Shown: in pieces, positions 55,203 to 59,922 of the stretch
Layout: every line of letters begins with the position of its first letter
How positions within the stretch are numbered: position 1 is the first letter of the stretch
Assembly: GCA_964488145.1 (NCBI GenBank)
Contig: CAZATV010000001.1
Coordinates: 10,128-74,127 of the forward strand
Source: an uncultured Polaromonas sp.
Lineage (GTDB): Bacteria > Pseudomonadota > Gammaproteobacteria > Burkholderiales > Burkholderiaceae_C
Direction: 5' to 3'
Length of the DNA: 64,000 nucleotides
The notes under the pieces: model-generated
Database searches by the model: none
The model's input: only the letters and a program-made list of their open reading frames with translations
Told to the model about the DNA's origin: nothing
Translations under genes and position numbers: made by a program

Positions 55203-55661
55203 ATGAAGCTGGATGTCAATGGAAAGGTGCGCGAGCTCGACGTTGAGCCCGACATGCCCCTGCTGTGGGCTTTGAGGGATGAGCTCGATGAGAAGGGCCC
55301 CAAGTTCGGTTGCGGCATTGCACAGTGTGGCGCTTGCACGGTGTTGCTCAATGGCGAACCGGTGCGCTCCTGCTCCTACCCGGTCTCGGCGGCCAGCGGC
55401 CAGAAGGTGGTCACGATTGAGGGCCTGGCCAACAGGGGCAAGCTCCATCCGGTACAGCAAGCCTGGATTGACCATCAGGTGCCGCAGTGCGGCTACTGCC
55501 AGGGCGGGCAGATTCTGGCGGCGGTGGCTCTGCTGAAGAAAAAGCCTAAGCCCACCGATCAGGACATTGATGCGGCCATGACGAATATTTGCCGCTGTGG
55601 CACGTATGCGCGGGTGCGCAAGGCCATCCACGCAGTGGCGGCCAAGGGGGTGCGCGCATGA
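55203..55661 (+). CDS. (2Fe-2S) small subunit, IorA/CoxS-like
   Basis: [36 protein letters not shown]. Confidence 0.93.
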
Positions 55662-57823
55662 GCTCCTCTGCCCAAGGTGTGCGCCGGCCGGACAGGCGTC
55701 TGTTTCTCAAGACCTCGGCCACCGCAGCCGCAGGACTGAGCCTGGGCTTTTATCTGCCCGGTCGAAGTGACGCCAATAACGCCCCTCGACTCAATGCCTG
55801 GGTGGAGGTGCGGCCGGACGAGACCGTGATCATTCGCTATGCCCGCGCCGAAATGGGCCAGGGCAGCCGCACCTCGGCGCCGATGCTGGTGGCCGAGGAG
55901 CTCGACGCTGACTGGAGCCGTGTCCGGGTGGAATATGCCACCGCCCATGAGAATCTGGCCGCCAAACGGGTTTACGGGGACATGGCCTCGGTGGGCAGCC
56001 GCACCATCCGGCAATCCCAGGAGTACCTGCGTAAAGCCGGTGCAACGGCGCGCCACCTGCTGGTGGCCGCTGCTGCGCAGCAGTGGGGGGTGCCTGCTTC
56101 GGAATGCACCACCGCCAAGGGGCGGGTGATGCATGCGGCCAGCAAACGATCCATCACCTATGGCAAGTTGGCGGTCGCTGCAGCCAAGATCGAGCCCCCC
56201 AAAGAGGTGCCGCTCAAGGATCCCAAGACCTGGACCCTCGTGGGCAAACCGCTGCCTCGGGTGGACATTCCTGACATCGTCACAGGCCGAATCCGCTACG
56301 GCATTGATGCGCAGGTGCCCGGCATGCTGCATGCCGCGGTGGCCGCCTGTCCGGTGTTCAACGGCAAGGTTCGCACCATGGATGCTTCCAAGGTGCAAAA
56401 CCGCCGTGGCATTGTGCAGGTGCTCAATCTCGGCGAGTTCGTCGCAGTGGTGGCTGACAACTACTGGCGCGCCAAGGAGGCCTTGCGTGAGGTGGTGGTC
56501 GATTGGGATGTGGGGACGCACGGCACCTTGAGCAGCGCGGCCATCATGGAGCATTTCAAGGGGGGCTTTGATCAAGCGGAACTGGCGGTGGCCCGCAACG
56601 ATGGCAACACCAACGAGGCCTTGGCCAAAGCCGGTCGTGTGTTTGAGGCCGAGTACTACACCCCTTACCTGGCCCATGCCACCATGGAGCCGCTGGTCTG
56701 CACGGCCTGGCTCAAGCCCGACAGCCTGGAAATCTGGACCTCAACCCAAAACCCCGAATCGACGCTGGCAACCGCAGCACGCACGGCAGGCATTGATCAG
56801 TCCAAGGTGTTGGTGCATCCGATGCAGCTGGGCGGCGGGCTGGGCCGCAAGAGCCCGCAGGATTTCACCCGGCAAGCGGTGATGATTGCCAAGGAAATGC
56901 CCGGCAAGCCGATCAAGATGGTTTGGAGCCGCGAAGAGGACATCCAGCACGACCTGTACAGGCCGGCCAGCCTGGTGCGGTTCAAGGCGGCCCTCAACGC
57001 ACAGGGCACGATAGATGCGCTGCATATTCGCGTCTCGGCGCCATCCATCCTGGCCACCCTGCTGCGTTTGCCTTTGCCGCGCGGGGTCGATGGCCAGGCC
57101 GTGGCCAGCTTCAACGACCATCCCTATGACATCCCCAACAGCCTGGTGGATTATGCGCAGCGCAACACCAACGTGCCGGTTGGCTTTTGGCGCACGGTGG
57201 GTCATTCGCAGAATCCGTACATGCGCGAATGCTTCATGGACGAGTTGGCTGCGGCGGCCGGCAAGGATCCGCTGGCGTTTCGCCTGAGCATGCTCGGCGG
57301 TAAACATCCGCGGGACCGTTCGATTCTGGAGGCAGTGGCCAAGGCTGCGGGCTGGGGCAAGCCGCTGCCCGCTGGCGTCTTCAGAGGGATTGCGGAGACC
57401 GAAGGTTACGGCAGCTACACCGCCTGTGTCTGTGAGGTCTCGGTCAATGCCCGCGGCGAGGTCAAGATTCATCGCGTGGTCATGGGCATTGATTGCGGCT
57501 ATGCGGTCAATCCGGACAACATCGAGGCGCAGATCCAGGGCAGTGTGGTGCATGGCCTGAGCGCCATCTTCTGGGGCGAGATGACGGTCAAGGAAGGTCG
57601 CATTGAGCAGTCCAATTTCCACGACTACCGCATGATGCGGCTCAATGAAATGCCCAAAGTCGAGACGGTGATCGCAACCACCGGTGGGTTCTGGGGGGGT
57701 GTGGGTGAGCCGGCGATGGCCCCGCTGCCGCCGGCCCTGGTCAATGCGATTTCAGCAGCGACAGGCAAGCGCTATCGCTCGCTGCCGCTGAAGAACCACG
57801 GGCTGAGCCTGGCGCGGGCATGA
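55658..57823 (+). CDS. Xanthine-dehydrogenase-family molybdopterin subunit, IorB-like, with Tat signal
   Basis: DRRLFLK Tat motif, EMGQG, AEELD, HATMEP, GGGLGRK, WSREED, FWRTVG, GGVGEP. Confidence 0.92.
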
Positions 57824-58218
57824 TCAAGCCGGCCGCGTCCCTCGGGGCGCTGGCCTGTGCGGGGCTGATGGCCGCTTCTTCGGCGGCGCAGACGCCGGCC
57901 GTCGGCAGCGTCGAGCGTGGTCGCGCTCTGCTGGCCAATCGGGCTGAGACGGGGTGTGTGTTGTGCCATCTCGTGCCGGGTTTGCCTGCCGGGGGCGAGC
58001 TCGGCCCGCCGCTGAGCGGTCTGTCCCGACTGGGCGGGACCGAGGCTCTGCGACAGCGCATTGCCGATGCTCGGCGCTTCAACCCGCAGACCATCATGCC
58101 GCCTTACCTGAGCACGGACGGTTTACAGGAGGTGGCGGCCTCCTATCGCGGTCAAAGCGTCCTGACCGCTCAGGGCCTCGACGACATCGTGGCGTATCTG
58201 ATGGTGATGGCGCGCTGA
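57820..58218 (+). CDS. soxX: SoxX-like monoheme cytochrome c
   Basis: Signal peptide, G.VERGR, CVLCH, GELGPPL, NPQTIMPPY, LT..GLDDIVAYL. Confidence 0.85.
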   Translation: MIKPAASLGALACAGLMAASSAAQTPAVGSVERGRALLANRAETGCVLCHLVPGLPAGGELGPPLSGLSRLGGTEALRQRIADARRFNPQTIMPPYLSTDGLQEVAASYRGQSVLTAQGLDDIVAYLMVMAR

Positions 58219-58243
58219 GCGCGAGGCGGCCCCACGGGAGCTT

Positions 58244-58756
58244 ATGCCTATGTTTTCGGTTTCCTCTGTGGGTCTGTCGGCCCGCGTGCTAGCGTCCCGG
58301 CGTCAGGCGGCGGCCTTCATGCTTGCCGCCATGGCGGGCGGCTGGCTGCCGGGTCGCGCGCGGGCGCAGTCCATGTTTTCCGGCACCTTGTTGACGGTGT
58401 CCCAGATGCTCGATCCGATCGTTCAGGGGCGACCGCTGCGCGAAGAGGGGCTTTCCTTGGAGCTTCCCCTGCTGGCTGACAACGGCTTGCTGGTGCCGGT
58501 TCGGGTGGTGGTTGACAGTCCCATGACGGAACAAGACCACGTGCGCCAGATTTACCTTCTGTCTCAGCGCAATCCGGTGACTCAGATGGCCTTGTTTCAT
58601 TTGGGTCCTTGGTCGGGCCGAGCCGAGGTCAGCACCCGCTTGCGACTGGCTGGCTCGCAGAAGGTGGTGGCCTTGGCGCAGCTCTCCGATGGCTCGTTTC
58701 GCTGGCGGCAGGCAGAGGTCATCGTCACCGAGTCGGCTTGTGTGGATGGGAGCTGA
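58244..58756 (+). CDS. soxY: SoxY-like sulfur carrier with non-canonical C-terminus (…VTESACVDGS)
   Basis: Tat-like SRRQ, LP.LADNG..VP, SPMT..DHV, NP, STRLRLAGSQ.VVA.A; no GGCGG. Confidence 0.8.
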   Translation: MPMFSVSSVGLSARVLASRRQAAAFMLAAMAGGWLPGRARAQSMFSGTLLTVSQMLDPIVQGRPLREEGLSLELPLLADNGLLVPVRVVVDSPMTEQDHVRQIYLLSQRNPVTQMALFHLGPWSGRAEVSTRLRLAGSQKVVALAQLSDGSFRWRQAEVIVTESACVDGS

Positions 58757-58759
58757 GCG

Positions 58760-59101
58760 ATGAGTCTGGCGCGTCTTCAGCTGCCGCAGCAGGTGGTCTC
58801 GGGGCAGGTGGTGAGGGCCCGGTTGCTGGTGGCGCACCCCATGGAAACGGGGTATCTGCAAGACCTGAGCGGCAAGACGATACCCAGAAACGTGATTCGT
58901 GAACTCAGCTGTGAATACGCTGGGCGCCAGGTGTTTCGGGTGGAGCCCTCCTCGGGTATTGCGGGCAATCCCCTTTTCGAATTTTTCTTCCGGGCGCAGG
59001 AAAGCGGCGAGCTTTTGATTCGTTGGGTGGACGATGCCGGTCAGGTGGGTGAGCTGCGCCAGTTGCTGCGGGTGCAAGGCCCGGTGTCTCGGCCGAGCTG
59101 A
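58760..59101 (+). CDS. soxZ: SoxZ-like protein
   Basis: HPMETG..D..G..IP, GIAGNP.F.F, W.DD. Confidence 0.85.
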   Translation: MSLARLQLPQQVVSGQVVRARLLVAHPMETGYLQDLSGKTIPRNVIRELSCEYAGRQVFRVEPSSGIAGNPLFEFFFRAQESGELLIRWVDDAGQVGELRQLLRVQGPVSRPS

Positions 59102-59922
59102 TGTCAGGCAGCCTGCCGATGCGTTTGCTGATGGCGATTCCGGTGCGCCCTTTCATTCAGGCCGGGTTGTGCTTGTTGCTGCCCGTGCTGGCGCTGGCCC
59201 AGCAGCGTGTCTTGCCGCTGGATCAGCTGCGGTCGGGCCTGCATTTTGCCGGCAGTGATGTGCGGGCTCTGCAGGCCGATGAGTTTGGCAATCCCGGACA
59301 GCTTTGGCTTCTGCGCGGTGAGCAACGCTGGGCTGAGGCCTTGGGTGCTTCGGGCAAGAGCTGCTTTCAGTGTCATGGCCCGGTGGTGCCGGCTATGCGC
59401 GGGGTGGCGGCGCGCTACCCGAAGCTCGATGCGGGCAGCGGCCGGCTTTTCAACCTGGAAGACCGGATTCGCCAATGTCGGCAGGTGCATCAGCAGGGCC
59501 CCGCTCTGGCTTGGGAGTCAGACGACCTTCTGGCCCTGAGCCTGTATGTCACCCAGGCTTCAGCCGGGCTGCCGCTGCAGGTGGATGTCTCGGGGCCGGC
59601 CCGTGCGCATCTGCTGGAGGGCGAGCGCCTTTTCATGCTGCGTCGCGGACAGCTCAACCTGGCTTGCACGCATTGCCATGACCAAAACCAGGGCCGAAGG
59701 CTCTACACCGATCCCTTGAGTCAAGGTCAGCCCAATGGTTACCCGCTTTATCGTCTGGAGTGGCAGAAGCTGGGTTCGCTCGAGCGGCGGCTGCGCAGCT
59801 GTCTGGTGGGGGTGCGGGCCGAACTGCCTGAATGGGGTGCTCTGCAGATGCGGCAGCTGGCCCTCTATCTGGGTTGGCGCGCCGAGGGCTTGCCTGTGGA
59901 GGCGCCCGCGGTGCGCAAGTAA
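59101..59922 (+). CDS. soxA: SoxA-like diheme cytochrome c
   Basis: DEFGNPG, CFQCH and CTHCH, RRGQLNLAC, YP.YRLEWQ..GSL.RRLRSC…VRAE, LYL.WRA.G. Confidence 0.88.
   Translation: MSGSLPMRLLMAIPVRPFIQAGLCLLLPVLALAQQRVLPLDQLRSGLHFAGSDVRALQADEFGNPGQLWLLRGEQRWAEALGASGKSCFQCHGPVVPAMRGVAARYPKLDAGSGRLFNLEDRIRQCRQVHQQGPALAWESDDLLALSLYVTQASAGLPLQVDVSGPARAHLLEGERLFMLRRGQLNLACTHCHDQNQGRRLYTDPLSQGQPNGYPLYRLEWQKLGSLERRLRSCLVGVRAELPEWGALQMRQLALYLGWRAEGLPVEAPAVRK

Follow-up and report, generated by a model that had tools for sequence, protein, structure and literature searches.

Why should a molybdenum hydroxylase share an operon with sulfur-binding Sox proteins where the enzymes SoxB and SoxCD do not accompany them? 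The question is raised by a 64,000-nucleotide stretch of DNA from an uncultured Polaromonas sp. (positions 10,128 to 74,127 of contig CAZATV010000001.1, assembly GCA_964488145.1; hereafter the window), in which the genes of a xanthine-oxidase-family enzyme, IorAB, of the type of isoquinoline 1-oxidoreductase, are followed by paralogues of soxX, soxY, soxZ and soxA. The operon is real and conserved, and it has been noted once in print without a function. Its fixed core, newly recognised here, is iorAB together with soxYZ. Among the explanations weighed below, our tentative first choice is that IorAB oxidises a sulfur group carried on a dedicated SoxY(Z) carrier.

The open reading frame coordinates bore out the arrangement that a sequence-only reading of the window had described. 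All six genes lie on the forward strand; iorA (55203–55661) and iorB (55658–57823) overlap in an ATGA, as do iorB and soxX (57820–58218), gaps of 25 and 3 nt set soxY (58244–58756) apart from soxX and from soxZ (58760–59101), and soxZ overlaps soxA (59101–59922) in a TGATG. IorA, which matches Pfam Fer2 and Fer2_2 and is without a signal peptide, is the small subunit with two [2Fe-2S] clusters, and IorB, which matches MoCoBD_1 and MoCoBD_2, is the molybdopterin-binding large subunit. The N-terminus of IorB carries the twin-arginine (Tat) motif DRRLFLK, and the motifs of the family are preserved, among them GVGEP, which holds the catalytic Glu684. Neither a flavin adenine dinucleotide (FAD) subunit nor the triheme cytochrome c subunit of the AldFGH form is encoded in the operon, the neighbours of which are copA and a small open reading frame upstream and bktB downstream on the opposite strand; the Tat motif and the missing FAD subunit had both been read correctly from the sequence. 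MoCoBD domains, a catalytic Glu and a two-[2Fe-2S] subunit without an FAD subunit are the features of IorAB/AldGH-type enzymes. In a sequence search the closest solved chain to IorB was 8gy3_C (E 1.3e-71), and the predicted IorB model (predicted local distance difference test score, pLDDT, 91.7) superposed on it with a template modelling (TM) score of 0.90. The Gluconobacter oxydans membrane-bound aldehyde dehydrogenase of that structure (PDB 8gy3) thus resembles IorAB in large-subunit fold, two-[2Fe-2S] subunit, catalytic Glu and lack of an FAD subunit, whereas IorB is only 27% identical to it, has no triheme cytochrome gene beside it and belongs to a separate clade with conserved residues of its own. 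The conserved basic residues of this clade (R60, R104, R115 and R502) could suit an anionic arm.

The Sox proteins of the operon have kept key residues of their canonical homologues, with the carrier arm changed. SoxX (TIGR04485, 63.3 bits against a cut-off of 61) is a monoheme c-type cytochrome with a CVLCH heme motif and an MPP motif, SoxZ (TIGR04490, 77.7 bits, cut-off 76) is the partner of SoxY and has no signal peptide, and SoxA (TIGR04484, 205 bits) likewise exceeds its NCBIfam cut-off. The claim that SoxA is diheme and keeps its active-site cysteine held on alignment to the diheme SoxA of PDB 1h31, in which the two CxxCH motifs, Cys126 as the ligand of the first heme, and R230/C234 correspond. 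Both CxxCH motifs, R218, R229, R230, R232 and C234 were invariant in 39/39 aligned proteins, and a role of SoxA Arg residues in sulfur-substrate binding is described in the accessible text of PMC4423706. Thus the Cys-ligated catalytic heme, the Arg pocket and the SoxX partner of canonical Sox are all present. SoxY has a twin-arginine-like leader and ends in the arm TESACVDGS instead of GGCGG, with the carrier Cys166 invariant in 69/69 aligned sequences. Of three SoxY models, TIGR04487 (“SoxY-related AACIE arm protein”) fitted best, over the C-terminal domain and arm, although at 130.6 bits it fell below the cut-off of 172 and the arm reads ESACVD; the score with the true-SoxY model TIGR04488 was 83.6 bits, also below its cut-off of 125. 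A phylogeny of SoxY, as the sequence-only reading had proposed, placed the protein with the AACxE proteins and apart from GGCGG SoxY (FastTree, 127 sequences). A loose and permissive twin-arginine pattern was found in 68/69 IorB and 65/69 SoxY leaders, in both of the operon layouts described below, and a periplasmic site of action is predicted for IorAB and SoxYZ alike. The operon therefore shares with canonical Sox the homologous SoxX, Y, Z and A, the carrier Cys and the SoxA heme-ligand Cys with its Arg pocket, and differs from it in having the ESACVDGS arm in place of GGCGG, no SoxB or SoxCD, and a molybdenum partner of the xanthine-oxidase family.

Queries with SoxB, SoxC and SoxD matched nothing anywhere on the window's contig (C1), which agrees with the absence of their genes noted earlier for the window. 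The genome does hold a complete soxCDYZAXB cluster on contig C18, but one whose own SoxY has the GGCGG arm and whose own SoxA is monoheme, and the operon SoxA, SoxY and SoxZ are only 27–29% identical to these counterparts. Since the C18 cluster carries its own SoxAXYZ with soxB/CD, the operon is a second, self-contained Sox set. A flavocytochrome c pair, fccAB, lies on contig C89 and the cofactor-sulfuration chaperone gene xdhC on contig C63.

The survey of gene neighbourhoods, which had also been proposed from the sequence, showed that the linkage of iorAB to these Sox genes is conserved. With SoxY as query, iorB adjoined it in 36/46 loci, far beyond chance; the other 10 comprised three short contigs, six loci with GGC-type or other arms and one false match, and soxB occurred in only 2/46, both next to a GGCGG SoxY and without iorB. 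At the level of the order, 301 genomes were searched with the TIGR04487 profile, 72 of them matched at E 1e-25, and among the 60 of 76 matches examined iorB adjoined SoxY in 55 and soxB in none. With IorB as query, 63 of the 80 best matches in 300 genomes of the order had such a SoxY within 3.6 kb, in 62 genomes (one SoxY being added from locus L146). In a phylum-level sample (20 of 44 matches examined), an AC-type arm stood beside iorAB in 11/11 loci and a GGC-type arm in 0/9, 8 of the latter 9 adjoining soxB instead; a flavocytochrome c flavoprotein gene lay inside 9 of the 11 iorAB-linked operons. The linkage spans Beta-, Alpha- and other Proteobacteria, and soxB was absent from every examined locus where SoxY adjoins iorB. 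In a FastTree phylogeny of 127 IorB proteins, a single clade of 99 (support 1.0) contained all 86 linked copies, and none of the 28 proteins outside it was linked. The figure of 63/80 is fairer than the 86 linked copies, because many of the 86 were found via SoxY and some loci are duplicated; all linked-locus counts include kin, which are not independent. Furthermore, purifying selection acts on each of the six genes, with ratios of nonsynonymous to synonymous substitution (dN/dS) of 0.01–0.24 against eight close relatives (one SoxZ value being undefined) and of 0.012–0.030 for iorA.

The 62 genomes with the operon carry soxB somewhere in 43 cases; in the other 19 no soxB was found, and 17 of these also yielded no soxC. 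The conserved linkage, the lack of soxB at the linked loci, the 19 soxB-free genomes and the separate SoxAXYZ of C18 support, at the level of gene context, the view put forward from the sequence, that this would be a distinct periplasmic system and not ordinary thiosulfate oxidation.

Which part of the operon is fixed is indicated by a shorter layout. At 30 of the 55 linked loci of the order-level set the operon reads iorA-iorB-soxY-soxZ, and neither soxX nor soxA lies nearby; three of the 30 lie on contigs shorter than 7 kb, and soxX is missing between iorB and soxY in all 30. In 28/30 (L070, L072, L075–L077, L079, L081, L082, L084–L092, L095–L099, L101, L103, L105, L106, L108 and L110) the SoxY arm is of a second type, with xxCG or something similar at its end, TIGR04487 also matching arms that end in (S/T/A)(G/S/A)CG; these operons form a clade of their own in both the IorB and the SoxY tree. 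SoxA scoring above its cut-off was found elsewhere in 32 of the 33 four-gene genomes searched, so that the loader is usually present in trans; genome G062, which is without the operon, is excluded from these counts. Most of the 20 such sites examined were soxXYZA clusters in which SoxA is monoheme and SoxY of the GGC type, and soxB accompanied only three. SoxXA is separated from iorAB-soxYZ also in L026, the genome of which has a stand-alone diheme soxXA, and in L204, L206 and L208. Three genomes of the same genus combine a six-gene operon with a second iorAB that has its own soxYZ (loci L204, L206, L208 and L217). Among the 13 in-clade iorB loci without linkage, none had soxXA without soxYZ. 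Three further observations concern these loci: the SoxB-poor soxXYZA clusters (L123–L142; soxB adjoining 3/20) occupy a conserved site next to moaC and a pilin gene, the operons of L188 and L190 have eight genes with xdhC and mocA after soxA, and in L148 a YeeE/YedE sulfur-transport pair (6226–7137, reverse strand) lies 11 bases after a clade iorB that has no Sox neighbours.

The window operon is itself a mosaic, with an IorB that is sister to the four-gene clade and a SoxYZ nested among six-gene operons of another IorB subclade, and the disagreement between the IorB and SoxYZ trees was supported by the approximately unbiased (AU) test with p of 0.002 and 3e-61, on 29 selected rows and with groups chosen after earlier trees. 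The trees thus indicate that the enzyme was exchanged, its replacement coming from within the same IorB clade.

The literature offers one close parallel, the second cluster of Starkeya novella, soxX2Y2Z2A2F2 (Snov_1982-1977), which lies with the xanthine-oxidase-family enzyme Snov_1975/1976 (Kappler and Nouwens 2013, PMC3797975). Like the window operon, it joins duplicates of SoxAX and SoxYZ to such a molybdenum enzyme in one operon without SoxB or SoxCD, and it too is found in a genome with a complete sox cluster elsewhere, whereas it includes the SoxF/FccAB flavocytochrome that the window operon lacks. The likeness rests on the published gene description, the accessible text giving no arm motif, distribution or mechanism. 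The statement from the sequence that no characterised example is known agrees with the literature as far as function goes, but the gene combination had already been noted in that 2013 paper. A functional study of the combination was not found, and only PMC3797975 describes it, within a search of openly accessible articles; the accessible texts of PMC4782131 and PMC1698941 draw no link between the molybdenum enzyme and the Sox genes.

What, then, would IorAB do with the carrier? The carrier chemistry is intact, the carrier stays with the enzyme, and the loader and flavocytochrome can sit elsewhere, which suggests that IorAB and the arm of SoxY are functionally linked in a direct way. Since 19 of the 62 operon genomes show no soxB, and 17 of them no soxC either, the unloading of the carrier has no conserved candidate other than IorAB. 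The flavocytochrome c genes, whether inside the operon or elsewhere in the genome, and the YeeE/YedE pair of L148 also speak for a role in sulfur metabolism. Oxidation of arm-bound sulfur, which we regard as the leading though far from secure reading, is ranked first because it explains how SoxB and SoxC could be dispensable, an S-sulfinate shedding sulfite. In a more specific form, which we consider possible and put forward with greater reserve, a widespread second Sox pathway would have a xanthine-oxidase-family enzyme in place of SoxCD and SoxB. This enzyme would set sulfite free by oxidising a persulfide (or organic disulfide) bound to SoxY, and the minimal form of the pathway would be iorAB-soxYZ. 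The catalytic steps, all of which we infer, would begin with SoxAX, from the operon or in trans and aided by flavocytochrome c where present, turning sulfide or sulfane sulfur into a persulfide on SoxY; the cargo may instead be an organic thiol. The SoxY arm would then enter the IorB funnel, where the molybdenum centre would move oxygen from water onto the outer sulfur in two rounds. The resulting S-sulfinate would hydrolyse to sulfite with no need of SoxB; the sulfinate product of persulfide dioxygenase is known to shed sulfite on its own. Electrons would pass through the two [2Fe-2S] clusters of IorA to a c-type cytochrome, possibly SoxX/SoxA, and IorAB would in this way take over the roles of both SoxCD and SoxB.

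Several points weigh against this reading. We know of no xanthine-oxidase-family enzyme that oxidises sulfur or a protein-bound substrate, and the fold and catalytic Glu of IorB match those of an aldehyde dehydrogenase (8gy3). R115 is a weak signature, since it lies in a cofactor-binding loop in which other members of the family often carry Arg as well. Sox genes do not adjoin 13 of the 99 members of the IorB clade, and four or five genomes with a clade IorB gave no TIGR04487 match (G011, G092, G115, G223 and the fragmented G096); as such unlinked members exist, some IorBs of the clade may act on a free substrate. The discordant trees mean that the partners are exchangeable and not strictly cognate, and none of seven longer SoxY-alignment matches, a weak test, was a fusion with a molybdopterin domain. 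In S. novella the second cluster was barely expressed, and its SoxAX/YZ went undetected on glucose, methanol and thiosulfate, according to the accessible text of PMC3797975.

The best-surviving alternative, which we judge unlikely although a serious contender, and which the sequence-only reading had also listed, is that SoxYZ donates sulfur in the periplasm, so as to put the terminal Mo=S ligand of IorAB in place or to renew it; IorAB would then be an ordinary aldehyde or N-heterocycle hydroxylase. It draws on the distribution of xdhC: of 26 loci outside the clade, 10 have this gene no more than 3.6 kb from iorB, against none of 111 inside it (11 of the 111 being assigned by context and not by the tree), so that soxY occupies the place where other iorAB operons often have xdhC. 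Partner exchange would suit a general service role, and the Sox-unlinked clade members and the AldH-like fold of IorB are in keeping with it. However, the contrast in xdhC coincides with that between clades and is close to a single event, both xdhC and soxYZ are missing from 16 of the 26 outside loci, and the two can coexist, as the xdhC-mocA ends of the L188 and L190 operons and the xdhC of the present genome demonstrate. Moreover, sulfuration of the molybdenum cofactor normally takes place in the cytoplasm and precedes export.

It is improbable, in our estimate, that IorAB attacks a free sulfur-bearing organic molecule, such as a thio-substituted heterocycle or thioaldehyde, while SoxYZ and SoxAX capture and dispose of the released sulfur. 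The idea would keep the ordinary C–H chemistry of the enzyme family and account for the sulfur-related neighbours (flavocytochrome c and YeeE/YedE) as well as for the low expression in S. novella on the substrates tried (PMC3797975, accessible text). However, the flanks of the operon hold no widely recurring gene for a transporter, a regulator or a catabolic enzyme, nor, beyond flavocytochrome c, any other such gene that would name a substrate, and with SoxB and SoxC missing from many genomes the loaded carrier would have no known route of unloading.

A no less doubtful proposal, already among the options of the sequence-only reading, makes SoxXA the cytochrome electron acceptor of the FAD-less IorAB, comparable to the triheme subunit of AldFGH, with SoxYZ as a passenger. 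IorAB indeed has neither an FAD nor a cytochrome subunit, soxX directly follows iorB with an ATGA overlap, and in L179 and L180, which lie outside the clade, the gene that comes after iorB encodes a triheme cytochrome. As an acceptor role alone it is weakened, because 30 of the 55 linked loci are without soxXA and relatives carry a second iorAB-soxYZ pair, so that soxXA is the part lost and soxYZ the part kept; the invariant carrier Cys and SoxA Cys/Arg pocket also speak against it. Electron transfer to SoxXA may nevertheless be a secondary role. Finally, that the Sox genes are surplus components of the ordinary thiosulfate-oxidising system, or a vestigial copy, beside an unrelated enzyme is very improbable, for although soxB occurs in this genome and in 43 of the 62 operon genomes, and the 2013 authors suggested that the S. 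novella cluster may have no function, or one under untried conditions (PMC3797975, accessible text), each of the six genes shows purifying selection, the non-GGCGG arm is the one tied to iorAB, 19 operon genomes are without soxB, and in Bradyrhizobium diazoefficiens only soxY1 of two soxY homologues is essential for thiosulfate oxidation (PMC5748708, accessible text; the arm type of its soxY2 being an assumption).

The surroundings of the operon were also inspected. About 55 bases ahead of iorA lies the motif GCCGGAAAACCCTAATAA (55130–55147, forward strand), which is exact upstream of iorA in four related loci with near matches in others, is unique in the genome as a 17-mer and is followed in relatives by a CATGAT/CATCAT hexamer; from this conservation we infer a candidate promoter or operator of the operon. 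A scan of the operon for promoters and terminators gave no signal clearly exceeding that of shuffled sequences. The small open reading frame between copA and iorA (54829–55098, forward strand, 89 amino acids) gave no match in a Pfam scan, and its C-terminal half is kept in six related loci at 55–80% identity. Recent horizontal arrival was considered and found unsupported, the guanine-plus-cytosine content of the operon genes being 0.61–0.68 against 0.626 for the genome. The operon is flanked by genes that we take to be dnaA-dnaN-gyrB (44142–49561) and mnmG-rsmG (61316–63945), and from its place between them it probably lies close to the replication origin.

The iorAB-soxYZ unit occurs in about a fifth of the sampled genomes of the order (62/300), and because many such units are annotated simply as “thiosulfate oxidation”, surveys of sulfur oxidation that count soxY, Z, A and X miscount them. 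Carrier-bound oxidation, if true, would make IorAB the first sulfur-oxidising, carrier-protein-dependent member of the xanthine-oxidase family, and would reveal an overlooked way in which heterotrophs of soil and fresh water oxidise sulfide. Should SoxYZ instead prove to donate the sulfur of Mo=S, a periplasmic route that places a sulfido ligand on the molybdenum cofactor would be seen for the first time. With a core of only four genes, the question can be approached with two small protein complexes.

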